A DNA stretch of 61,693 nt, counting the filler. It is 5 parts of 5 records of this genome, joined end to end, with 100 filler letters (N's around TTAATTAATTAA, not from the genome) between each part and the next. Parts side by side here need not be neighbours in the genome. Positions count along the whole stretch, not along the records: positions 23,626 to 32,089 come from SRR31147125_9280; 4 more parts are not named here. One strand, given 5' to 3'. The position numbers were made by a program, and so were the translations under genes. This document shows, one piece after another, positions 12,741 to 39,976 of this stretch. The notes below the pieces were generated by a model, which saw only the letters and a program-made list of their open reading frames with translations, was not told where the DNA came from and did not search any database. The first letter of the stretch is position 1. Every line of letters starts with the position of its first letter.

Positions 12741-12840
12741 NNNNNNNNNNNNNNNNNNNNNNNNNNNNNNNNNNNNNNNNNNNNTTAATTAATTAANNNN
12801 NNNNNNNNNNNNNNNNNNNNNNNNNNNNNNNNNNNNNNNN
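12741..12840. other. Artificial contig spacer
   Basis: N-run containing TTAATTAATTAA (stops in all frames). Confidence 0.99.
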
Positions 12841-20983: not shown

Positions 20984-23525
20984 TTAAAACTCAAATGTCA
21001 AATCAATCACAATAGGCTCGTCGTCGTTGCCAAAAATCATCTCCTCGTTACTGGTTGGGCCTTGTTCTCCAATATCTTTAAACTTGGTGCCAATTGGAGG
21101 AATGTTTTTTACAAACGAGATGTCGCCTTCGGGCCACTTTTTAACTGCTGAGCCCTTTAGTGCATCTGCCGGTTCGTCGGGAGTAAGCATGCGCAAAAAG
21201 GTGTGTGGAGTGTGACAATACACATTAAAACCATTGCCATTATTACCACGAATCTGCGCCCAATAAATGCTCGAAAAGTAGCCTTTAAACTCCGGGTATA
21301 CATATCCCGATTCTCCGGTAATGGTATTGTTGTAATCGTTTTTCCAAACTTTCAGTTTCGTACCTTTCATGCGGTTTCGCCATACGCGGTACGGGCCATC
21401 GCCTAACCATTTCATTCCGACCACTTCGCTCTCGGGAAATAAGAATGTAATTCCATAGAAATCCTTGATTTTACGTGTTCCTTTTATGCTGGTTTGCAAA
21501 TCAACCAAGCCGTTTGAATGAACTGTCCATTTTATGTAATCCTGTGTCATTTCTTCGTTGTCCTCCCAGTCCCAATATTTTTTCCTTGGCTCGTAAAGTG
21601 CAACTATTTCTACCTTATTTTCTGAAGTAGAAACAAATACAGTATCTAACTTCGATTTACTTCCCAAAAGGATCGGCCCTTTTGCCAATGGAATAGTAAT
21701 ACCTTCTTTTACAACCTTTTCAATTAAACCTGTTTTTGCTGAAAAAGTGAAATCCAAATTATGAGTAGAAACTTCAATTTTGGAAGCGTTGCTATTAACA
21801 TCAAGCTTTCCTTTTGCTGAATATTCAAGTTTGTTTTCATTAAAATTATCAGGAAGTTTAACAGGGTACGACCATGTGAAGATTTCCATTCCGTGTTTAT
21901 TCCATGCAGTTAAATAAAGGGCATCGGCATTTTTCCAGTTTTGTGGTAAATCTACTTTAAAAGAACCACGTTGACCTGGCTCAATTGCAGGCAGTGAAAC
22001 CGTACTTTCGTTGAGTATTTTTTCGGTGGTTGAGCCGGAGGGGCCATCGAATTGTACCCACTTTGCTTTCATTGTACAGGCATCCATGTTGGTGAAATGA
22101 TAGCGGTTTTCTACTTTAAAAACTCCATTGAAGCCATCGCGAATGTATCTGTCGTAAATAAAAACAGGCGACCACACTTCTTTTATGGTAAAGTAACTTC
22201 CTTCTTTTTCTCCATAAGGACCAACAATGCCATCGGGTGCATGATTCCCATCGGTATCTAAAATTCCTCCTTTGTCAGTCCTCACCACAGCTTCATCGGC
22301 AAAATCCCATAAAAAGCCACCCGCCGACAAGGGCATATTCCACATTACTTTCCAGTATTCATCCAGGCTGGCTCCGTGTCCGCCATCGTAAAGTCCGTGC
22401 ATAAATTCGGTGGGGAAGGAGATTTTATCTTTTACATAGCCATCGTAAGCCAATCCATGATACGGCAAATAGTGGAAGGTATTTGTTTTTCCATAAATGC
22501 CCCAGGGGTGAATCACCTCACGTTTTTGTATGTCCCATTTGGTATATTCATCGTCGAGCTCGTTGTTCCAACCCGTTTCGTTTCCGTTATCCCAAATTAC
22601 AATACCTGGGTGATTAACATCGCGAACCACTGCTTCCTTAACAATCTTTTTTCCAACCTCGGTGTCCAGGTAAGGTACGTGCCAGGTACAAACCTCGTCG
22701 AGCACAAACATTCCCAACGAATCGCAAACATCCAAAAAATGAACATCGGGAGGATAGTGCGACATGCGCACCGCGTTCATGTTCATGTCTTTCATTAGTT
22801 GTACATGCTCAATGCTCAGTGCTTTTGAGGTTGTGCGCCCTGAATTCGGGTAAAAACTGTGGCGATTAACTCCCTTAAATTTAATTTGCTGACCGTTTAC
22901 ATAAATCCCATCGCTTTCTCGTACTTCCACGGTTCTAAAACCAATACGCTGCTTCGCGGTGTGTAAGATTTCTCCTTTTTTGTCTAAAAGGCTAATTTGA
23001 AGTTCGTAAAGGTTTGGGCTTTCAGGATTCCATGTTTTTATGTTTGAAGCGGAAGTGGAAACAGACCATTTCCCATCTTCCTTTTTTAGTTTGTCAATGT
23101 TTAAGTCTTGAATTTTATTTCCAGAAACATCTGCCAGAACAAGTTTAGCATCTTCGGCTTTACCCGATGTGGTAAAAATGTCAGCCTTTATTGCTCCATT
23201 GGCTTGCGCATCAATTGCTACGCGATTAATATTTTCTACGGGAAGAATTTCGAGATAAACAGGACGAAAAATTCCTCCAAAAATCCAGAAGTCGGAATTT
23301 CGTTCGGCAGCGTTTATCGATGCATTGGCCGACATTTTATTCACTTTAACTTCCAACAGGTTTTCTTTGCCATATTTCAGCAATTTCGAAATGGAATATT
23401 TAAACTCGTAAAAAGCGCCCTGATGAATTTCTCCGGCCAGTTTACCGTTTATTTTTACCTCGCAATCGGTCATTACTCCTTCGAAAACAATTTTCACCTC
23501 CTTATTTTTCCAGTCGGCAGATACC
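20984..23525 (-). CDS. GH2 beta-galactosidase-like hydrolase (5' part lost at the contig end)
   Basis: GGIFRPV, KGVNRH, NAVRMSHYP, WDNGNE (acid/base), TEFMH (nucleophile), GGFLWDF. Confidence 0.92.
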
Positions 23526-23625
23526 NNNNNNNNNNNNNNNNNNNNNNNNNNNNNNNNNNNNNNNNNNNNTTAATTAATTAANNNNNNNNNNNNNNNNNNN
23601 NNNNNNNNNNNNNNNNNNNNNNNNN
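23526..23625. other. Artificial contig spacer
   Basis: N-run with TTAATTAATTAA. Confidence 0.99.
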
Positions 23626-24815
23626 ATCCGGAAAACCCCGATTGGGAAAATTATACCCCATCACATACAGGTTATATCGAGGATTGGGAAGCGCACCAGG
23701 AGGCCATTGAACAAGAAGTGGATACGATTTTTGACAGATTTAAAGACGAGTCGACAAAACTGATACTGCAACAAAACCACGATAAACTGCTTGCCCTGGC
23801 AACCGGAGTTTTCTTTGCCTGCGAAGATGCAGAAATTGACGACCCTTATGGCGATTATGAAGATATGAATGAAACGCTTTTGGAAACATTCCACGCCGCC
23901 CTTGCAGATGTAAACGAAAAAATAGAACAGTCGGTAATCCCGGGAAACATTAATGCCGCCATCGAATTATTTTTATCGTTTTGCAACCAAAGGCATCCTG
24001 CAGAGCCTAACTTCTTGCTACAACTTGAACCACTGCTAATTACTTTATCTGAAAAATCGACACAACCGGCTCAATTGCTTGAAACTATCGATGCCTCAAA
24101 AGTTAACAGGGCTCATGTACCACAGTTGGTTCTCTTACTGAATAAAAACAGTGGAAACCGTACAGAATGGCTCAAAAGTGCAGAAAACTACTATAAAACC
24201 AACATTAAAATTGCCAAACAACTAATTGACTACTATTTTGAAAATGACCAGGATAAATACCTGCAACGCGCCCACGAACTTTTTGAAACTGACAATACAT
24301 TTTGGGCCGGGTATCTGCAAAATTCAATCAGTTACGAACTCGATAAGCAACTTTACATCGATGTATTTTACGAACTCTGCACATACCAACACGATATCAG
24401 CTATTATCAAAAAATCAATAGCCTCCTACCCCCTGCTCAAAAAGAGAAGCTACTGGCAGAAATGAGCTGGAATGCACGTTTTACGGTTGAAATACTTACT
24501 ACTGAAAAACGGTACGGAGAAATAAAAGAGGTGGTAAACAAAAATATGAATTCGTGGGATTTTGTGCACCTTCTATCGCCCATCATCGGAATTTACCCCG
24601 AATTCTGTTTTAACGCAATAAAGCAGCAGGTAACCAACACCTTAAAAACAGAACGCGGACGAAGTGTTTACGAGCGAATTGTGGAGAAAATGCAGTTGGC
24701 AAAAAACATCCCCGGATTCGCCAGCCAAACCAACGAACTAATAATGCAGCTATATAACCACAAACCCAACCTGCCGGCGCTAAAAGATGAATTTAAAATT
24801 GGAGGCTTGGTATGA
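23626..24815 (+). CDS. Helical hypothetical protein (C-terminal part; resembles SWIM-finger-associated proteins)
   Basis: Long ORF that probably starts beyond the contig edge; ends R..Y......HKPNLPALKDEF. Confidence 0.55.
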
Positions 24816-24906
24816 GAAATGAAAAACGTACGTGTATTAGAATGTATAACTTGAAAGCCGACAGAGCCTGCTGGAACAGGAAATAAAAATTGATAAAACA
24901 ATATAT

Positions 24907-25040
24907 ATGAACAAAACAGACATTTCAATTTTAAAAGAACCTTTAAAGGTTACGGGGAAAGTGGTATTGGAAATTGAACCGTTGGCGCCTTTGTCAATGG
25001 TGAGTGATTTACCTGCTCTTTTTATAAATCATTAAAAAAT
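24907..25040 (+). pseudogene. cas5: Truncated, diverged cas5 5' fragment
   Basis: MNKTDISILKEPLKVTGKVVLEIEPLAPLSMVSDLP, then after a 1-nt shift SFYKSLK. It aligns with the intact Cas5 N-terminus MEKIDISILEKIPELTKRITIQIEPMAPLSMVSNLPGSFYKSLK. Confidence 0.85.
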
Positions 25041-25057
25041 TACATATAACTTATTTC

Positions 25058-25076
25058 AGTCAAATATAATTTGACT
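25058..25076. promoter_or_regulatory. Palindromic operator candidate upstream of the HTH gene
   Basis: AGTCAAAT-ATA-ATTTGACT, perfect 8-bp arms. Confidence 0.5.
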
Positions 25077-25114
25077 TTACGAACAGATTACTTTTTTATG
25101 TAGTCTAAAAATAA

Positions 25115-25122
25115 TAATTTTG
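25115..25122 (+). promoter_or_regulatory. Bacteroidota -7 promoter box for the HTH gene/cas operon
   Basis: TAATTTTG matches TAnnTTTG and ends 24 nt before ATG 25147. Confidence 0.6.
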
Positions 25123-25125
25123 TAT

Positions 25126-25150
25126 ATGTTATAAATAATAAGCTACATGG
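25126..25150 (-). promoter_or_regulatory. Predicted self-target (protospacer 25147-25126 plus 5' CCA PAM at 25150-25148)
   Basis: Minus strand reads CCA-TGTAGCTTATTATTTATAACAT, against spacer TGTAGATTATTTTTTAATAACAT. Confidence 0.7.
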
Positions 25151-25338
25151 CATGTAAATTGAAAACAATAGAAAAATATTACGAAATTCTTATAATATTA
25201 CGTTCTAAAAAGGTATCTGTTCGTGAGTTGATGAAAAAGATGTCAATGTCAAAAGAAGGGGTTTATACTTACCTGAGAACTATGCAGAAGTATGAACCTG
25301 GCCTACGAAATGAGAATAATAAATATTTTTTGCAATAA
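25147..25338 (+). CDS. Small basic winged-HTH protein (63 aa) at the head of the cas locus
   Basis: EILIILRSKKVSVRELMKKMSMSKEGVYTYLRTM fits an HTH_11-like pattern; preceded by a -7 box. Confidence 0.7.
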   Translation: MACKLKTIEKYYEILIILRSKKVSVRELMKKMSMSKEGVYTYLRTMQKYEPGLRNENNKYFLQ

Positions 25339-25414
25339 AAAAAGAGTCAATGTTATTAAAAAATAATCTACAATTTCAATTCCGAAAGGTGCGATTGAAT
25401 ATAACATTGACTCT
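25337..25414 (-). ncRNA. Predicted ~78-nt crRNA-like regulatory RNA (leader-repeat-spacer-U tract)
   Basis: Minus-strand TATCTTCG -7-like box at 25426-25419; 14-bp perfect inverted repeat (25401-25414 / 25343-25356); one repeat; ends in a U7 run. Confidence 0.65.
25373..25401 (-). CRISPR. Solitary CRISPR repeat (no array)
   Basis: Minus strand TATTCAATCGCACCTTTCGGAATTGAAAT, 29-30 nt, ending in the type I 8-nt handle ATTGAAAT; 80 nt upstream of cas6. I found no second copy. Confidence 0.8.
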
Positions 25415-25481
25415 ACCGCGAAGATAAGAATAAATAAACTTGAGAAAGAAATTATACAATTCACTAAAATAAATTTGGCTA

Positions 25482-26147
25482 ATGAGAATACATTTAAAAA
25501 TCGATTCTGATGGCACAGTTGTTCCATTTAACCACCAGAGGAAATTAACAGGAACCATTCACAAATGGATTGGATTAGAAAACATTGAACATGGAGAGAT
25601 TTCACTCTATTCATTTTCGATGTTAACAGGTGGAAAAAAGGATACATATGGAAAAGGGTTAAAATTTAACAATGGCTCATCTTTTTTTATTAGCGCCCAC
25701 AATCCAGCTCTAATTAAAACGATAATTGCGTCAGTACAATCAGATCAGGAAATGTTTGATGGCTTACGAGTAGTGGAAATTATAATACAAGAAGATCCAG
25801 ATCTGAGCCAAACAGATCGTTTTTTGGTTGCAAGTCCCATTTTTATAAAGCGCAAAGAAGGGGAAAGGGTTAAACATTATGCCTTTAACGATAATGGTGT
25901 TGCCGACTATTTAAAAGAAACACTTCTAACAAAAATGGAAAAAGTGGGATTACAAGACGATTCACTAACCATTGAATTCGATAAGGCATACCATAATGCA
26001 AAATGTAAAGTTATGCATTACAACGGTGTGAAAAACAAAGCCAATATATGCCCTGTGATTATCAAAGGAAAACCAGAAACAAAAGTGTTTGCCTGGAACG
26101 TAGGAATTGGTAACAGTACAGGAATTGGATTAGGTGCAATAAAATAA
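25482..26147 (+). CDS. cas6: CRISPR endoribonuclease Cas6
   Basis: H...SLYSFS, SPIFIK, C-terminal G-rich loop GIGNSTGIGLG. Confidence 0.93.
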   Translation: MRIHLKIDSDGTVVPFNHQRKLTGTIHKWIGLENIEHGEISLYSFSMLTGGKKDTYGKGLKFNNGSSFFISAHNPALIKTIIASVQSDQEMFDGLRVVEIIIQEDPDLSQTDRFLVASPIFIKRKEGERVKHYAFNDNGVADYLKETLLTKMEKVGLQDDSLTIEFDKAYHNAKCKVMHYNGVKNKANICPVIIKGKPETKVFAWNVGIGNSTGIGLGAIK

Positions 26148-26153
26148 ATAGTT

Positions 26154-26867
26154 ATGGAGAAAATAGATATCTCAATTCTTGAAAAAATACCTGAATTAAC
26201 AAAAAGGATAACAATTCAGATTGAGCCAATGGCGCCATTGTCGATGGTAAGTAATTTGCCTGGTTCATTTTATAAATCGTTGAAAAGCCCAAGTAAAAAG
26301 ATGTTATGTGGTTTATTTGAAAATATGTTGGGATGGCATTTTAGTTTTAATCATAGAACAGCAATCCAGAAAGAGATAATAAAGGCTCGACGTAAGCAAA
26401 AAGTAGAGTTTTCCAAACCACAAAAAGGCTCAACATATATCCCCCTTTTGATGGAGTATTTCGAAATTGATTTGGTAACAGTTCCAGAATACTTTATGTA
26501 TAATGATTTGTGGAGTAAAGCATATCGAAGAGCTGATGCAGATGTACATCCTAAAGGGACTCAAAATATTCACTATGATTTGATTTCGATTAAAAGAAAT
26601 AAACCACGAAATCCCCAAAAGCCCAAGCAAATTGCAAGTGCAGAATTATTAAAAATGTTTCTTGACGACCAAGGTAAGTTTCCTCTTTATTACTCTACTC
26701 CAACAATGCGAGAATACATAAAACATAATAAGCCAATTGAAATAGTATTAAAAATTGACAATAGCTTACTTTGTATGATTACCAAATACCTACAAACTCA
26801 AAATACAAGCTATTTGGGAAATAGTGAAGGATGGATAGACATTAAAATAAAAAGCAATGGAAATTAG
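26154..26867 (+). CDS. cas5: Cas5, PGING subtype (Cas5p)
   Basis: IEPMAPLSMVS..PGSFYKS...P...LCGLFENMLGWH; YYSTPT.RE; YLGNSEGW. Confidence 0.85.
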   Translation: MEKIDISILEKIPELTKRITIQIEPMAPLSMVSNLPGSFYKSLKSPSKKMLCGLFENMLGWHFSFNHRTAIQKEIIKARRKQKVEFSKPQKGSTYIPLLMEYFEIDLVTVPEYFMYNDLWSKAYRRADADVHPKGTQNIHYDLISIKRNKPRNPQKPKQIASAELLKMFLDDQGKFPLYYSTPTMREYIKHNKPIEIVLKIDNSLLCMITKYLQTQNTSYLGNSEGWIDIKIKSNGN

Positions 26868-28389
26868 ACTACACCCATATATTTGTTTTGGCCAAGCATT
26901 AGTAATAGTTGAGAATGGTGGTGATAAAAAGATGGAGATTACAACCAAAAATATTGCTGATGAGATTGTAATTGGACTTGCCTCTTTTAGGGTTCAACCA
27001 TGTGAATTATTTGAAGGCAAAGAAAAAATAAAATATCGATTTGGTCGAATTGAGAAAGGAAAAACAGAGGTTGGAATTTTCTTAGCCCCTAATATTATTT
27101 CAACTGATATGCTTGCAAAAAACACTTGGAAAGGAGCTTTACAGTTATATGAAAAATGTCAAGATAATCCACCCGAGAAAACAGAAAATGCAACAATGGC
27201 CTTGTCTCCCCTTTCGGGAGAATATTTATCATTTTCAACAAAGGGAGGAATTGGAAGGGGAAAACCCAAAAGCACAATTCTAGAAATGGCTCTCAGTATG
27301 GTCACCACTTTAACACCAAATAAACCATGCCTTCAAGATCGTGGAAATAACACATGCATAATACCGGATCTACCTCTTGATAAAATGATGGATTTCATTC
27401 GATTATTTAAAGATATGCTTCGTCATCAAACAGCTAATGATATTTATTATGGAAGAGTAAAAAAAGAGGAAAAAGGAAAAGGAGCAAATAAAAAAATAGA
27501 ATACAAACCTGTCAGACCGTTATTGTTTCAAGGGAATTTCCCAAATCCACCCAAAAGTACTACACTTGGAGCTGTGGCTTTGTTGGCAACAATTGGGGAA
27601 TTTTGTAAAAAAGAGGAATATTCACGACGAGCACAGGCAGTTATTGAAAGTCTAAAAGGAACAACCATTTACATGGTAAAGTATGGAGATGCAAAAACAT
27701 TTACGTTTAATCATTTTGTTATTGACCTTGCAAAAAATGGTAATCTACGGCGAGTAATCGACAGCCTATATTATTCTAAATTATACAACCAATCGCATCG
27801 CGATTATAAAAATACAGAATATCAGAAATTCGACCTATTCACCAGTCGCTTTCTTCAGCTATTTAATCGTGCTGCATTTAAAGATTTTCTTGCCTTCAGG
27901 GCAGAATATCCACAAGAAGTAAAATTATTATTTATAACATATTTCGAAAAAATGGAGAAAATAGATCCAAACATCGTAACCTCTGCCAGACATTTAGGTA
28001 GATGGCTTAACTTAGTTGCTTACCATACTGCAAAAAGGGAAATAAAAGATGGTACTCAAAATTATTGGGACAAACTAAGAGAACAAAAAGCAAAAGTTCT
28101 TGTAGAGCTGGAAAGTTCAAGTTTTTCAGCAAAATCGGGTGATGCAATGATCGCCCAAGTTGTTACCAGAGCAGGAAGACTTTCAGGAATGGATGCACCA
28201 AGTGAAGCAACTTTGTTTATGGAAAAAACTTCAAGTGGTGAACTCCCCCTTGACCAAGCAAGAAATTTAGTAATCGCATTTTCAAGACTGAAAAATGTGA
28301 AAGAAGAAAAAGTAGATGAAAGGACAACAGAAAGCTCAGTCGAAGAAAAAGCTCAGGAAATGGAAACCAATAATTATCAAGATTCATAA
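26857..28389 (+). CDS. cas8: Cas8 large subunit, PGING subtype (Csp2-like)
   Basis: 510 aa between cas5 and cas7; TTLTP.KP, IPDL, RP....GNFPN.P, FL..F....FKDFLAFRAEYP. Confidence 0.75.
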   Translation: MEIRLHPYICFGQALVIVENGGDKKMEITTKNIADEIVIGLASFRVQPCELFEGKEKIKYRFGRIEKGKTEVGIFLAPNIISTDMLAKNTWKGALQLYEKCQDNPPEKTENATMALSPLSGEYLSFSTKGGIGRGKPKSTILEMALSMVTTLTPNKPCLQDRGNNTCIIPDLPLDKMMDFIRLFKDMLRHQTANDIYYGRVKKEEKGKGANKKIEYKPVRPLLFQGNFPNPPKSTTLGAVALLATIGEFCKKEEYSRRAQAVIESLKGTTIYMVKYGDAKTFTFNHFVIDLAKNGNLRRVIDSLYYSKLYNQSHRDYKNTEYQKFDLFTSRFLQLFNRAAFKDFLAFRAEYPQEVKLLFITYFEKMEKIDPNIVTSARHLGRWLNLVAYHTAKREIKDGTQNYWDKLREQKAKVLVELESSSFSAKSGDAMIAQVVTRAGRLSGMDAPSEATLFMEKTSSGELPLDQARNLVIAFSRLKNVKEEKVDERTTESSVEEKAQEMETNNYQDS

Positions 28390-28407
28390 ATATAAAAACA
28401 TACAACC

Positions 28408-29325
28408 ATGAATATTAAAGGAATATTAGTTACAGCATTAGCTCCGTTCGAAAATCATATTGCAAATGGAGGAGAAAAATTACTAGGAAATGCATCATCA
28501 ATCAAAAGAAGACCCGACGGAAAAGTTTATGTTTCTGGCCAGATGCAACGACACGTCCTGTTTTCAGCAATCGATCGTTTAAACGAAATCGATGAGGACA
28601 AAGGAAACACTTTCGTTTCGAATGGCGATGGCATTAGTCCTTTTATTGAAAAAGACCTTCGTGCCGACATGGGCGGTTTTATGCATCCTAGCAAAGGAGA
28701 TTATTCAGGAAGAAGAACAGCTCCACTTTCTGTTACTCCAGCAGTTGCAACCGGTTTGAGTCAAGTTGGAAGAGATTTGTTAGTTAGGATAAAACTTGAT
28801 ACTAACGAAGACTCGAAAGATCAAGCTTTAGCAACCAAAGAGTTCAGCGAAACAGACATCATGCACATGAACTTCTTTTTAGATGTAAGTGCATTAAGTA
28901 TCTCAAAAGCATTTGAATATGAAGATGGCTTCAATATTGGCACCAAGTATTTCAAACATGCCAATAATCCTGAACGCAAACGCAGAGCCAAGTTATTCCT
29001 AAACGGTACTCGATATATGAATGACTATGCAAGTCAAGCTCGAAATGCGGTTAGTGGCGAACCCCAAAAAGTGTTAATCGTTTTTGATGAAGTAATGAGC
29101 CGAAAAGCTAGCCGTTATTTTGTGGCTGAAGAACAGGAACAAAATAATATTTTGGCAGAATTAGATGCCAAAGGTGCAAAGTATTTTATTGGAGATGACC
29201 AAACAGATAAGAGTGTACAGAAAGCATATGATGAAGCTTTAGCCTTTTTGGAAGCAAATGAATTGTATGACCCATCAAATGGTGACGATATAAAATCTTT
29301 TGCCGAAGCATTTGGTAATGAATAA
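28408..29325 (+). CDS. cas7: Cas7 backbone subunit, PGING subtype (Csp1-like)
   Basis: ANGGEKLLGNASSIK, YVSGQMQRH, DLRADMGGFM, RRTAPLSVT. Confidence 0.85.
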   Translation: MNIKGILVTALAPFENHIANGGEKLLGNASSIKRRPDGKVYVSGQMQRHVLFSAIDRLNEIDEDKGNTFVSNGDGISPFIEKDLRADMGGFMHPSKGDYSGRRTAPLSVTPAVATGLSQVGRDLLVRIKLDTNEDSKDQALATKEFSETDIMHMNFFLDVSALSISKAFEYEDGFNIGTKYFKHANNPERKRRAKLFLNGTRYMNDYASQARNAVSGEPQKVLIVFDEVMSRKASRYFVAEEQEQNNILAELDAKGAKYFIGDDQTDKSVQKAYDEALAFLEANELYDPSNGDDIKSFAEAFGNE

Positions 29326-31589
29326 AATTCAGAATAAAATATTGGCCAAGCCTTCTGGTATTTCGTTGGAAAAACACCATTCCAATGTAATGTCAGAAGG
29401 TGCTTATATTGAAGATTCCTTTCCTGTTGAATTTGAAAAATACCATAACTTTGTTGGAAAATCGTTGGCTAATCGACTGCAAATAGTTTGTAAGCATCAC
29501 GATGATGGAAAAAAGTCAACATCAAATGGCAAGAAGCTTGTCAAAGGGATTATCAAGCATATTTAGAGTGGAAAGAAATTCATCAAGGGACTTTTGTAGA
29601 ATACTCTAAACAGCAAAAAGAAGAAGCTGGTAAGAATATTCGGGTAGCAGCAACAAGACACGAATTATATTCAATTAAACAATTCGATATAGATAAAGCT
29701 CCTTCATATATTCTTACCGCAATAGCTGCACATCATGGAAAATTATCAGTAAAAGATGCTGAACGCTGGATTAAAGAGGGAGCAAAAAATTATTGGGACT
29801 TCTTCAACCAGCTCGACTATGATGTCAAGGATAATTTTTCATTTAAAGATGCCTTGTTAAAACAATATGAGCAAGCTGGCCCGCGTGGACTATTGCAGCT
29901 TGCTGATCACAGGGCAAGTGCTAAAGAAGATGGACAATCAGTTCCAGAAATAAAATCTTTTCGCTACCAATTTCCTCATCCATCAAAACGAGGAGTTCAA
30001 AAGATAATTGAAGAAAATTGGAACAACGACCTTCTTTTGGTTCGAGCTCCAACAGGTGCAGGTAAAACAGATGCTTCATTGCTATGGGCATCGTTACAAA
30101 TTGAAAACAAAAAAGCAGAACGATTAATAATTGCAATGCCAACACGTTTTACATCCAATGCGTTGGAGATAAACGTTGCTGAAACATTATCTGAAACGGG
30201 ACTTTATCATTCAAGTGCCTGGTTTAACAAATTCCAAACAAAAGTAAAAAGCAAAGAAGTGGAACATGCAGTTGCAAAGAAAAACCATGAATTTGCCCGT
30301 CTTTTATATACTCCAATAACTGTTTGTACTATTGATCATTTATTGATGTCGCTAACACTGATGCGAGAAGATCATCACCAAATAACATTTAACCTTGCAA
30401 ATTCATGCTTAGTAATCGATGAAGCCGACTTCTACGATGAATTTACACAAGCAAATATACAAACACTTTTAGTTGCATTAAAAGAATGGAACGTTCCTGT
30501 ACTTTTAATGAGTGCGTCTTTACCAGAATCAGTTGTTCCTTCTTATCAAGCATTAGGATATAATGTAGATCAAATATTAGAAGAAAAGTCGGATAACGAT
30601 AGAATTCGATTTAATATTGAATCAATAAATGAATACGAAGACTTAGTAGAAATAGAACCGCTTTTAGAAAAATGTATCGAAAAAGGAGCTGCAATTATCT
30701 ATGCCAATACGGTTGATAAGGCCATGTCGCTCTATGATTATTTCTGCGATAGAGATGTAAAAGCAATTGTTTATCATAGCCGATTCACGGAACCCGATAA
30801 AAAAGCGAAAGAAGATGAACTGATTGATTGCCTAGGGAAAAAAGCGTGGGAAAATAAAACGGCAAATGGAATTGCAATACTTACTCAGATTGGGGAAATG
30901 AGTATTAACATTAGTGCAGATCTAATGGTTTCTGAGATTTGTCCAATTGACCGATTGACACAACGTGCAGGCAGGTTATGTCGTTTTGAAATCAATGGCG
31001 AACGAAATGTTGGTGAATTGCATGTTATCATTCCGAAAAAAATGGAACTCTTTATCCAGCACCATACGGAACTTTTGATTTACATGAAAAGGCATGGCAA
31101 CCAATTAAACCATTAACGGACACGATTGAAAGAATAGAATTGAAAGACTATAGTGCCAATATGTTGGTGACGTTATTGAATGAAATCTATTCGCATGAAT
31201 CGGAATTTTCAGCAGTAGCTAAACGGAATGCAAATCAGCTAAAAGAATTGTTCATCTCCAATTGGCTAATAAATCCACTTTATAAAGTATCGGAAGAAGA
31301 TAACGATGGAAATAATTGGAGAAGTAGAAATATTCCGCCTCAGGATACCGTTTTTGTATCGTTGCCTGATAATAGATACTTCAATAATTATTTTGACTTC
31401 CAAGAATGGAAGCTATCTAATTCACTTGAAGTCCCTGTTTATTTGATAGAAAAATACATAAAAAAACACATTCTCGATTTTGAATCAATCTTTTTAAAAG
31501 ATGAAGAAGAAAAAATAATGGTTATCCGAGAAGGGTATTACAATTTTGAAAAAGGAGTATTTTTACCCGATGAGAGCAACTTCTTATAA
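29318..31589 (+). CDS. cas3: Cas3 HD nuclease-helicase (read in three pieces; indels at A-runs 29509-29514 and 31036-31042)
   Basis: HD part: LAKPSG.SLEKH, HHDDGK, RHE, AHHGK, LADHRAS. Helicase part: APTGAGKT, DEAD, MSAS, HSRF, QRAGRLCR. Adding one A to each run restores a single ORF. Confidence 0.92.
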
Positions 31590-31631
31590 TCTTCGTTCGA
31601 TCGCTAATGCCAACTTGTAAAAATTAAATTC

Positions 31632-31660
31632 ATCTCAGGGTTCCAAACCCTGTCAGAGGT
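31632..31660. repeat. REP-like palindrome (degenerate copy)
   Basis: ATCTCAGGGTTCCAAACCCTGTCAGAGGT, related to 32057-32089. Confidence 0.65.
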
Positions 31661-31685
31661 AAAAAACATACAACACCAAAACAAC

Positions 31686-32038
31686 ATGCCAACATTTGAG
31701 CACGACATATTTTACGACATCCACAAAATACCAATGAAGAAAAAGTGGAGCTCTTACGAGAAGCTAAAAACTTATCGTACCAGTTTTATATCGATAAACT
31801 TAATGCGAGTGAAAGTTTTGCACGTCAACCGGCAAATATCAGTTTTGATGATGTTTTGGAGCGTATAGATGAATCTACCCATTTTGTATTTATCCACCGC
31901 AAGGGGTATTCAAAACGGGAGCATCGCTTAGAAATTGGTTTCAGCACAATGGAAACCATCGACCACTTTTTGTTTATTTATGTTGATGAACTTAAAAAGC
32001 CATATTTTTTGGAGAAATATAATCTGGAAATAATGTAA
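31686..32038 (+). CDS. Hypothetical protein (~117 aa, split at an A-run near 31740)
   Basis: MPTFEHDIFYDIHKIPMKKK continues in another frame as VELLREAK...HFVFIHRKG...EIGFST..DHFLFIYV. Confidence 0.55.
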
Positions 32039-32056
32039 AACCTATTAAATAGCACC

Positions 32057-32089
32057 ACCTCTGACAGAGTTTGGAACTCTGTCAGAGGT
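32057..32089. repeat. REP-like palindrome at the contig end
   Basis: ACCTCTGACAGAGTT-TGG-AACTCTGTCAGAGGT, perfect 15-bp arms. Confidence 0.75.
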
Positions 32090-32189
32090 NNNNNNNNNNN
32101 NNNNNNNNNNNNNNNNNNNNNNNNNNNNNNNNNTTAATTAATTAANNNNNNNNNNNNNNNNNNNNNNNNNNNNNNNNNNNNNNNNNNNN
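32090..32189. other. Artificial contig spacer
   Basis: N-run with TTAATTAATTAA. Confidence 0.99.
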
Positions 32190-33193
32190 TGGCAATCTTA
32201 CGGACAAATAGTCCTGTTATGAAGGAGGTTTTTAATAAAGTAAGATCTGTTAGTCAGTCAAATAGCACTGTATTGTTAACCGGTGAAACAGGTACAGGAA
32301 AAGGTGTTATTGCTAATCTCATTCACCAACATAGTCAAAGGAGAGAGAATCAATTTATTAATATCCATTGTGGGGCGATTCCTGAAACACTTTTAGAGAG
32401 TGAACTGTTTGGCCATGAAAAAGGTGCCTTTACTGGTGCCGTACGGAGAAAACTGGGGAAATTTGAAATCGCTCAAGCAGGGACCATTTTTTTGGATGAG
32501 ATTGGTACAATAACTCATTCAATTCAGGTAAAATTATTGCAAGTACTACAAGAAAAGATATTTCAACGAGTTGGCGGAGAAGTGTCGATTGAAGCCGATG
32601 TCAGGATCATCGCCGCAACAAATGCCGATCTGAAGGATATGGTCAAAAATGGCACATTTCGTTCAGATCTTTATTATCGCTTAAATGTCTTTCCCATAGA
32701 AATACCGCCTTTGCGGGAACGAATTGCAGACATACCTTTACTTGTCGAGCAATTTATTAAAAAATTGAATCGATTTAACTCTAAAGATATTCGCGGAATA
32801 GACTCAGAAGTTTTACAGGCTTTACAAAATTATACCTGGCCAGGTAATATTCGCGAATTAGAAAATATCGTTGAAAGGGCCTATATTCTGGAAACATCAT
32901 CCATTCTGAGTCGAAATAGTTTTCCTCATGAATTATTTGATAATATGAATGAAGCGCATTTTCATCGTATTGATACCTCTTTGACTTTAGAGAAGGTACG
33001 TAATCAGGAGGTTGCACTCGTCGAGAAAAAATATTTACAAAAGCTACTCACGATTTATAAGGGCAAAATAAATGAAACGGCAAAAGCAGCTGGAGTTGGG
33101 GTTCGCCAGTTACACAAATTAATGAAAAAACATGGTATTCATAAGGAAGAATTCAAACAGTTTGGAAGTAAGAATGTAAAATCGGAACAATAA
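32190..33193 (+). CDS. Sigma54-dependent transcriptional activator (5' partial)
   Basis: [47 protein letters not shown]-terminal Fis-type HTH. Confidence 0.95.
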
Positions 33194-39876: not shown

Positions 39877-39976
39877 NNNNNNNNNNNNNNNNNNNNNNNN
39901 NNNNNNNNNNNNNNNNNNNNTTAATTAATTAANNNNNNNNNNNNNNNNNNNNNNNNNNNNNNNNNNNNNNNNNNNN
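39877..39976. other. Artificial contig spacer
   Basis: N-run with TTAATTAATTAA. Confidence 0.99.

Follow-up and report, generated by a model that had tools for sequence, protein, structure and literature searches.

A putative single-repeat crRNA-like regulator, closed by a predicted stem between its leader and distal guide, beside a type I-B PGING CRISPR-Cas locus

An inverted repeat around a solitary repeat unit upstream of cas6

In a 61,693-nucleotide (nt) stretch of DNA, hereafter the window, we examined a short element that lies between a small open reading frame (ORF) and the cas6 gene of a CRISPR-Cas locus. Several contigs have been joined into one pseudomolecule to make the window: linker blocks of the form N44-TTAATTAATTAA-N44 occur four times (12741-12840, 23526-23625, 32090-32189 and 39877-39976). 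The joins truncate genes, among them a glycosyl hydrolase gene ending at 23497 and a sigma-54 activator gene starting at 32219. The cas locus occupies a contig of 8464 base pairs (bp; 23626-32089) that ends about 500 nt past cas3, and it encodes the PGING variant of type I-B (I-PGING), with Cas5p, Cas8c/Csp2 and Cas7/Csp1 alongside Cas6 and Cas3 and with all NCBIfam equivalogs above their cut-offs (Table 1). The element consists of a solitary CRISPR-repeat-like unit, 67 nt from cas6 of this complete effector operon, enclosed by an inverted repeat and flanked by a promoter-like box and a run of T's.

Likeness to a CRISPR repeat was judged against the arrays of relatives, as the contig ends without an array of the source organism. 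The unit shares AATCGCACC and GGAATTGAAAT (20 core positions) with the array repeats of I-PGING and I-B relatives; the I-PGING arrays carry CTCTTAATCGCACCATATTGGAATTGAAAT and similar repeats, and the core AATCGCACC-N4-GGAATTGAAAT was present in 87 stretches of the genome collection, mostly Bacteroidota arrays. Its sequence marks this 28-nt unit as a genuine repeat of the I-B type, read on the minus strand. It occurs in one copy only (23-mer search with up to 3 mismatches), and stands as an ectopic unit beside the cas locus, outside an array. No second repeat follows it in the window, and R1, a covariance model of the stem and repeat, found no second unit near it of the kind that defines a two-repeat mini-array. 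By analogy with array repeats, Cas6 would be predicted to cut between 25381 and 25380, leaving an 8-nt handle, ATTGAAAT.

The inverted repeat had been reported in a preliminary description made from the sequence alone, and it proved exact: the arms at 25343-25356 (AGAGTCAATGTTAT) and 25401-25414 (ATAACATTGACTCT) are 100% complementary over 14 bp and enclose 44 nt. Four distinct perfect inverted repeats of at least 14 bp with loops of 3-100 nt occur in the window, against a mean of 0.055 in 200 first-order Markov surrogates, 9 of which held any such repeat; a large loop was seen in only one of the four, the one that encloses the CRISPR repeat. Also as first described, a promoter-like box precedes the 5′ arm and a U7 run follows the 3′ arm on the minus strand. 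The Bacteroidetes sigma-A -7 consensus TAnnTTTG occupies positions -12 to -5 (PMC9723704), and placing the box TATCTTCG at these positions predicts a transcription start (+1) at 25414, the first base of the 5′ arm, with CGGT (4 nt) between box and arm. The motif is not enriched across the window (62 found, 80 expected), and it therefore carries weight only through its positions next to elements and genes. The distance from the repeat end to the end of the T7 is 37 nt, and the array spacers of relatives measure about 35-38 nt; the predicted RNA end, about 36-37 nt past the repeat, falls at a normal spacer length.

RNA folding likewise agreed with the preliminary description. A 91-nt minus-strand RNA was predicted to fold at -22.6 kcal/mol, against -11.9 +/- 2.6 kcal/mol for shuffled sequences (z -4.16; none of 200 as stable), with stem pair probabilities of 0.75-1.0, and the stem retained -14.9 kcal/mol even with the repeat constrained to be unpaired. 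Coordinates and fold concur in placing the stem over spacer positions 17-30 and in leaving positions 1-16 free. When folding of the nascent RNA was modelled, the 5′ arm was nearly free (-3.2 to -3.9 kcal/mol), and would thus be able to close once the 3′ arm emerges. The stem (14 bp) stands directly before the U7 run on the presumed transcribed strand, as in an intrinsic terminator, and stem and run together occupy the expected place of a second repeat, in keeping with the earlier suggestion that the RNA could end without a downstream repeat.

The unpaired positions 1-16 had also been singled out as the target-matching segment, and they match the sequence at 25132-25147 save at positions 6 and 12. 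With these two positions left free, the only exact matches in the window were the guide itself and this target; by chance, 0.10 such matches per window would be expected when up to one mismatch is allowed. A validated type I-F1 regulatory mini-array has the same every-sixth mismatch pattern (Shmakov et al., 10.1101/2023.03.03.530964), and work cited in that report indicates that every sixth nucleotide makes no contribution to base pairing in I-F1 systems. The target and its candidate protospacer-adjacent motif (PAM) span +5 to +23 of a predicted promoter whose downstream gene, a 63-amino-acid (aa) ORF with weak helix-turn-helix (HTH) similarity, has its ATG at +20, so the PAM-proximal part of the guide matches a promoter region of the locus. 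The target lies at the start of this HTH gene, not at a recognised cas8 promoter. Two homologs of the HTH ORF, 71% and 70% identical, were found among 5.8 billion proteins. Between the arms of a second inverted repeat (25079-25096/25207-25224; 18 nt, 89% complementary, 110 nt apart) lie the predicted promoter of the HTH gene, the predicted Cascade target and the opening 60 nt of the ORF.

Table 1. Features of the element and of the adjoining cas operon, in window coordinates
Feature	Position	Strand	Sequence or basis
-7 box before the HTH ORF	25115-25122	+	TAATTTTG; perfect; predicted +1 = 25127
Predicted Cascade target	25150-25132	-	protospacer 25147-25132 TGTAGCTTATTATTTA; PAM-side triplet CCA 25150-25148
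63-aa ORF, weak winged-helix/HTH similarity	25147-25338	+	Pfam HTH_11 E 2.7e-4, below cut-off; weak WYL/CARF-HTH matches
U7 run directly after the 3′ arm, presumed termination site	25342-25336	-	sequence
3′ arm of the closing stem, pseudo-spacer positions 17-30	25356-25343	-	AUAACAUUGACUCU; minus-strand reading ATAACATTGACTCT
Guide part of the pseudo-spacer, positions 1-16	25372-25357	-	TGTAGATTATTTTTTA; unpaired in predicted fold
Solitary repeat-like unit (psiR), 28 nt	25400-25373	-	ATTCAATCGCACCTTTCGGAATTGAAAT, ending ATTGAAAT
5′ arm of the closing stem, leader of the predicted small RNA	25414-25401	-	AGAGUCAAUGUUAU; minus-strand reading AGAGTCAATGTTAT
-7-like promoter box	25426-25419	-	TATCTTCG; 5/6 match to Bacteroidetes sigma-A consensus TAnnTTTG
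-7 box before cas6	25470-25477	+	TAAATTTG; perfect; predicted +1 = 25482, the A of the cas6 ATG
cas6	25482-26147	+	NCBIfam TIGR01877 2e-22; PADLOC Cas6b 4.4e-91
cas5p	26154-26867	+	NCBIfam TIGR03488 3.4e-80
cas8c/csp2	26857-28389	+	NCBIfam TIGR03487 3.3e-190
cas7/csp1	28408-29325	+	NCBIfam TIGR03489 3.7e-164
cas3	29294-31589	+	three reading frames in window; Cas3' core 9.9e-95

In the contigs of the sole sequencing run that contains the window DNA, which is probably its source, an additional A follows 29508 and another follows 31035, within both cas3 frame overlaps, and a further one is found at 31739; by frame arithmetic the first two bring all three cas3 pieces into one frame. It is therefore probable that cas3 is intact in the organism and that its three-frame appearance is a homopolymer assembly error. 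The missing array and cas1, cas2 and cas4 are uninformative because the locus sits on a short contig. A decayed locus, with a split cas3 and without array or cas1/2/4, had been considered and was dropped given the contig linkers and the added A's; what the contig holds is probably an intact, interference-competent I-PGING system rather than a decayed, array-less one.

No plus-strand terminator was found between the HTH ORF and cas6 by scanning or folding, which makes read-through from the HTH gene into cas6 plausible. From the position of its perfect -7 box, cas6 may also own a leaderless promoter, back to back with the promoter-like box of the small RNA at a distance of 44 nt. Directly upstream of the HTH gene lies a 365-aa ORF (23718-24815) that matched no Pfam, NCBIfam or PADLOC family; its sole similarity extends over 27 residues, to sequence upstream of cas6 in the loci L005 and L029.

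The architecture recurs in other Bacteroidota type I-B loci

The same layout of -7 box, 5′ arm, repeat, free guide, 3′ arm and U-rich tail was found in three other Bacteroidota I-B loci, in genomes G138 (locus L042), G344 (L141) and G321 (L069). Their stems are 13-17 bp long (17 bp in G138) with loops similar to that of the window's element; the arms are AAAAGCAGUAUUUC/GAUAUACUGCUUUU in G344 and GCGCUCAUUUUGC/GCAGAUUGGGCGU in G321, and the tails are UUUUUAUUU in G138 and UAUUUUAUU in G321. The -7 box, which agrees with the consensus at 5/6 positions in the window, is perfect in all three, and in each no other perfect TAnnTTTG lies within 280 nt on the same strand as the element (about 0.012 by chance in each case). 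Taking the window, G138, G344 and G321 in that order, the box ends 4, 2, 2 and 8 nt before the 5′ arm, the gap from the 5′ arm to the shared repeat core is 4, 12, 11 and 7 nt, the free guide measures 16, 18 (13 with five extra inner pairs), 18 and 13 nt, and the 3′ arm ends at guide position 30, 30, 32 and 26. A T-rich run (8/9 T) comes after the 3′ arm in the window and G138, and the G344 arm itself ends in U4-5. The arm sequences are unrelated among the window, the G138/G344 pair and G321.

Each of these elements adjoins type I-B effector genes. In G138 the order is cas6, element, target, a 74-aa ORF, a cas8b-like gene, cas7 (Cst2), cas5b, cas3, cas4, cas1b, cas2 and array; in G344 it is cas6, element, target, a 646-aa ORF (taken as cas8b from its position alone, with no family match), cas7, cas5h and cas3. 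The G321 element is divergent from a 688-aa ORF, likewise cas8b by position only and without a family match, followed by cas7 and cas5b, with a 3′-open unannotated ORF in the cas3 position. The target lies at the HTH gene in the window and upstream of cas8 in G138 and G344. The small target-side ORFs of the window and G138 are not homologous, and G344 has none. At the G138 target there is also a 16-bp palindrome (8857-8872/8878-8893 of L042; 94% complementary, 5-nt spacing) that overlaps the Cascade target and looks like the operator of a dimeric regulator sharing the target site.

The G138 and G344 elements are homologous (81% column identity in a structure-independent MAFFT alignment), which allowed the arms to be compared pair by pair. 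Nine of the 14 stem pairs were invariant, two were unpaired in one sequence, and three consecutive pairs had changed on both sides (U-A to A-U, G-C to A-U and U-A to G-C), so that 93% of cells paired, against 39-46% with slid partners. Co-variation of the arms, without which the preliminary description would have viewed them simply as protein-binding DNA sites, was borne out in analogous elements only, by the unrelated arms of the three other loci and by these three double-changed pairs; for the window's own element no homolog was found. G.U pairs favoured the repeat-sense strand in 3/4 elements, by 8.2 (G138), 3.0 (G344) and 6.4 (G321) kcal/mol.

Guide and target co-varied as well. The guide is TAGTATATCTATTTGTT and its target TAGTAGATCTAATTGTT in G138, and they are TAATTGATCTATTTGTA and TAATTAATCTAATTGTA in G344; in both genomes the target lies between element and cas8, and mismatches occur only at positions 6, 12 and 18. 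The guides differ from each other at positions 3, 5 and 17, and these differences are mirrored in the targets. The triplets next to the targets, CCA in the window, TCA in G138 and TTA in G344, are consistent with YYA as a candidate PAM. Bacterial I-B systems use CCN/TCA/TTA-type PAMs. The neighbouring proteins of G138 and G344 are far less alike than the elements and their targets: Cas6 is 36% identical, the cas8b-position proteins have no detectable similarity, and Cas7 and Cas5 belong to different subfamilies. Guide and target may travel as a module from one I-B locus to another, or they may be unusually strongly constrained.

These elements were reached by two routes, one with and one without structure. 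Scans with R1 gave no match in 5 genomes, one in 151 (G138) and no true match in a further scan of 151, where the match in L040 was rejected as an ordinary terminator and that in L041 as weak and unrelated. A later, three-sequence covariance model, R2, recovered G321 (itself in the model) and G344, the fourth element, in one scan of 151 genomes; other 151-genome scans returned G138 or G321 themselves only, or nothing (0/151 scans covering largely the same sample). In 22 genomes R2 found G138 itself and a 30.8-bit match in G318, an array-level score, in 4 genomes it found G321 itself and array-level matches, and in a scan of one genome G344 itself. The other route was a pattern scan for the repeat core, with no structural requirement, which yielded 38 repeat copies from loci that contain no more than 2 exact matches; 11 were classed as non-edge solitary units once the contig-edge copies L107 and L111 and the units with a neighbouring repeat had been excluded. 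The G138 element (here L096) and the G321 element (L069) were both found in this way, independently of structure. They were the 2/11 solitary units with a strong duplex between leader and distal spacer (-27.9 and -27.5 kcal/mol, respectively), exceeded by only 0.07% of 1462 array units.

Among the other solitary units, four have a degenerate or truncated second repeat about one spacer downstream and are conventional two-repeat mini-arrays (L076, L079, L084 and L088, from Paludibacter, a Clostridiaceae metagenome-assembled genome (MAG), a Dysgonomonadaceae MAG and Emticicia). One from Anaerorudis cellulosivorans (L072, repeat at 2826) has an 11-bp helix between its leader and spacer positions 22-32, with no -7 box and no T-rich tail, and could represent another form of the closed architecture. 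The remaining units, L055, L083, L091 and L113, fit neither class clearly.

Proposed role of the stem and alternative explanations

Taken together, the anatomy of the element and its recurrence suggest that the inverted repeat is probably the closing stem of an approximately 80-nt minus-strand RNA, a single-repeat crRNA (CRISPR RNA)-like regulator of the CreR/crlRNA (crRNA-like RNA) class that serves the adjacent I-PGING system. Transcription would start at or next to 25414, a placement supported by the perfect boxes that precede the arm in 3/3 analogues. The polymerase would pass one repeat-like unit and then a 16-nt guide, and would stop in the U7 run once guide positions 17-30, which make up the 3′ arm, fold back onto the leader and pair with it. 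Most likely, stem and U-run act as an intrinsic terminator in place of the second repeat that normally sets the 3′ end of a crRNA. Cas6 would then cleave 8 nt before the repeat end, and the loaded Cascade would bind the CCA-flanked site at 25132-25147, within +5 to +23 of the HTH promoter, blocking transcription there without cleavage because complementarity ends at position 16. Such restraint would be needed because cas3 is probably intact. Repression in the window could be autorepression of an HTH-cas read-through transcript or control of the HTH gene alone, the latter because the perfect box before cas6 predicts a leaderless start of its own.

A plausible rationale for the design is that the RNA should end about one spacer past the repeat, yet must keep 16-18 free guide nt; the roughly 14 nt left would be too few for a local AU-rich hairpin, and the 5′ arm would be borrowed from the leader instead. 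Two other functions proposed in the preliminary description did not hold up. The stem would hardly mask the guide until Cas6 cleavage, since guide positions 1-16 lie unpaired in the loop, and it would not be needed to limit the R-loop so that Cas3 is not triggered, since the target has no complementarity past position 16.

A number of observations weigh against this reading. As a perfect Watson-Crick helix, the window stem carries no strand information; its plus strand, antisense to the repeat, has a slightly more favourable fold (-23.0 kcal/mol, z -5.43), by 3.2 kcal/mol in the strand comparison of the four elements. Its leader/downstream duplex, at -20.3 kcal/mol, falls at the 2.6th percentile of the 1462 ordinary array units, which is unusual but not extreme. 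The short loop and G+C-rich stem of a usual terminator are replaced by a 44-nt loop and a stem with 4/14 G-C pairs, and a scan with the terminator consensus (loop 3-8, at least 3 G-C pairs) gave 0 sites in 24700-25700; the element may act like a terminator, not a canonical one. The -7 box of the window is imperfect, and the other three perfect inverted repeats, with loops of 3-10 nt, resemble ordinary terminators. The perfect box at 25470-25477 also predicts a separate, leaderless start for cas6.

The comparative evidence has its own weak points. A Cas6-based search fetched 20 relative loci (9 from genome_contigs and 11 from metagenome_contigs, all at most 69% identical), 16 of them examinable, that is, with at least 176 nt upstream of cas6 (L002, L008, L026 and L031 lacked the upstream part and were left out), and none of the 16 held a direct homolog of the window's element. 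Exact DNA patterns taken from the element gave only chance matches in coding sequence in genome_contigs (L010, L019 and L020) and none in viral_contigs. Since no homolog was found, covariation is seen only in analogous elements, where the shuffle control for G138/G344 was weak (59/500) because only two sequences were available, and where the model-fitted alignment of three sequences, in which 8/14 pairs changed on both sides, leans to structure. For the G321 guide no target was found in 8 kb under the every-sixth-free criterion, and there is no perfect -7 box between element and cas8 in G138 or G344. Among the sequencing runs listed, no RNA run contained this stretch, only the probable source DNA run. 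A low-depth contig of that run agrees with the window as far as 25366, a point within the element that falls between 3′ arm and repeat, and is unlike it from there on; it may stem from a strain that lacks the repeat or from a branch in the assembly.

Other explanations accept the RNA and give its stem or its target a different role. With the repeat between the two arms, cleavage by Cas6 would leave them on different fragments, and Cascade assembly might then displace the leader or the leader might stay. If it stayed on guide positions 17-30, the stem would act mainly after cleavage, as a tethered handle or anti-spacer: the one repeat could supply both handles, as in a split, circularly permuted crRNA, and/or the double-stranded distal guide could shorten the R-loop. 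In keeping with this model, the cleavage products are predicted to be duplexed at -20.9 kcal/mol and the guide fragment alone to be unstructured (-0.8 kcal/mol), the 5′ arm abuts the 5′ boundary of the repeat in the window, 4 nt from the shared core, and the unpaired part of the guide (16, 18, 18 and 13 nt) follows in length the target-matching part (16-17 nt) in those elements with a known target. A tether would also be advantageous, given that two-handle CreA is far more abundant and a better repressor than one-handle CreA, the Cas6-bound 3′ handle nucleating Cascade (PMC8501985). The model is purely structural, however; the variable gap between 5′ arm and core (4, 12, 11 and 7 nt) speaks against an exact handle geometry, termination rather than tethering accounts for the U-rich tails, and the R-loop would be limited anyway by the lack of target complementarity past position 16-17. 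Moreover, the Cas7 backbone would not be expected to accommodate a duplex, and we regard a lasting tether as rather unlikely. Its most specific form is improbable too: the leader, carrying the first ~20 nt of the repeat (in a normal crRNA the Cas6-bound 3′ handle), would be annealed to guide positions 17-30 at about -21 kcal/mol, and Cascade would assemble on a 16-nt guide with a protruding helix. Were this split crRNA to exist, the complex could bind and yet never form a full R-loop or recruit Cas3, a hard-wired, regulation-only effector set by RNA topology rather than by mismatches alone. It is similarly improbable that the same RNA is a CreA-type antitoxin in an addiction module, with the 63-aa ORF as a Cascade-repressed toxic or growth-arresting guard of the CRISPR-Cas locus. 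Cascade-repressed protein toxins are known (10.1101/2024.01.05.574328), the target overlaps the beginning of a small ORF instead of lying at a recognisable cas promoter, the ORF is rare, with its 2 homologs in 5.8 billion proteins, and cas6 may have its own promoter. Nevertheless, the ORF resembles a small winged-helix DNA-binding protein (weak matches) and matched no toxin family, cas8, or a small ORF and cas8, is found downstream of the targets in G138 and G344, a CreR-type position, and without a plus-strand terminator past the ORF, read-through into cas6 is plausible.

The remaining explanations dispense with the minus-strand RNA. The better fold of the plus strand, together with the intergenic position of the element between co-oriented genes, would suit a hairpin that processes, stabilises or attenuates the HTH-cas6 transcript, with the repeat core incidental or decayed. 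This is very unlikely, as the U-run is on the minus strand and none follows the stem on the plus strand, the repeat-sense fold is better in the three analogues through G.U pairs, the perfect -7 boxes point in the repeat-sense direction, and the guide-target matches with every-sixth mismatches would be left unexplained. Still less probable is a DNA palindrome without RNA structure, its arms being half-sites for a protein such as the HTH product or a recombination or cruciform site. A DNA-binding-like ORF does adjoin, and other palindromes lie near targets, at 25079-25096/25207-25224 in the window and over the target in G138; yet the arms are unrelated across elements when a homologous regulator would be expected to have operators of conserved sequence, there is no homology between the small ORFs and G344 has none, a half-site spacing of 44 bp is unusual, and G.U pairs and compensatory changes indicate RNA pairing. 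The explanation to which we give least credence is chance, or a functionless, decaying leftover of an array end. Many standalone repeat units do appear spurious (Shmakov et al., 10.1101/2023.03.03.530964), and the searches made returned no homolog of the window's element. Against this, both the perfect 14-bp inverted repeat and the guide-target match are rare by expectation (0.055 and 0.10 per window, the latter at one mismatch or fewer), a promoter-like box, stem, spacer-length spacing and U-run coincide at one site, and the architecture recurs elsewhere.

Comparison with known regulatory crRNA-like RNAs

Regulatory crRNA-like RNAs have entered CRISPR biology only lately, and the 3′ ends of those that lack a second repeat have so far been described case by case. 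If the element is the single-repeat regulator that we propose, its stem would point to a compact gene design that recurs in Bacteroidota type I-B loci, with arms that co-vary and with the RNA kept at normal crRNA length. It would provide an annotation signature for single-repeat regulators that two-repeat searches miss, and a minimal natural scaffold for Cascade-based repression. It also raises the question of whether the leader, once cut off, could remain bound and take over from the absent 3′ handle, on which the abundance and potency of such RNAs are known to depend.

The RNA class itself (CreR, crlRNA, standalone repeat units) and the combination of a single repeat with a terminator are already published. 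As in CreR/crlRNA systems (10.1101/2023.03.10.532045; 10.1101/2023.03.03.530964), the window has an ectopic repeat unit in the cas locus and a guide that matches, in its PAM-proximal part, a promoter region close by, apart from every-sixth mismatches; enrichment of repeat-like sequences near cas6 in I-B loci has been reported for this class. In CreA and CreR, partial complementarity gives binding without cleavage (PMC8501985). The Haloarcula hispanica creA with one psiR is a close parallel in that a single unit leaves a 5′ handle only, a terminator replaces the second repeat, and a type I-B Cascade represses through partial complementarity (PMC8501985); the G138 and G344 elements further resemble the H. 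hispanica module in lying between cas6 and cas8. The creA terminator, in contrast, is a plain T-rich stretch with no hairpin, creA represses the RNA toxin CreT, and the part of that report available to us mentions no leader-spacer pairing (PMC8501985). The type V-A CreR of Ruminococcus and the phage-borne CracrVA1 (10.1101/2024.10.29.618823) also join psiR, psiS and a rho-independent terminator in one RNA that represses a cas promoter, but they serve Cas12a with short guides, and their terminator, a hairpin then consecutive thymines, is not described, in the portion of the source available, as enclosing the repeat.

Bacteroidetes intrinsic terminators and small RNAs (PMC7366714) resemble the element in having a stable stem followed by a U-run and an intergenic gene that runs from promoter to terminator; unlike the canonical terminators, whose loops measure a few nt, the window's element has a 44-nt loop and an AU-rich stem. 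The available parts of the CreR/crlRNA literature, whose supplementary sequence figures could show one, do not describe a stem that the leader forms with the distal guide around the repeat. Relative to the CreR/crlRNA systems described there, the one in the window is I-PGING, in a Bacteroidota-like genome, with its target at the start of a small HTH gene; and where most type I CreR/crlRNA genes described so far have two, degenerate, repeats, the predicted RNA of the window has one repeat and would owe its 3′ end to the stem between its leader and guide positions 17-30.

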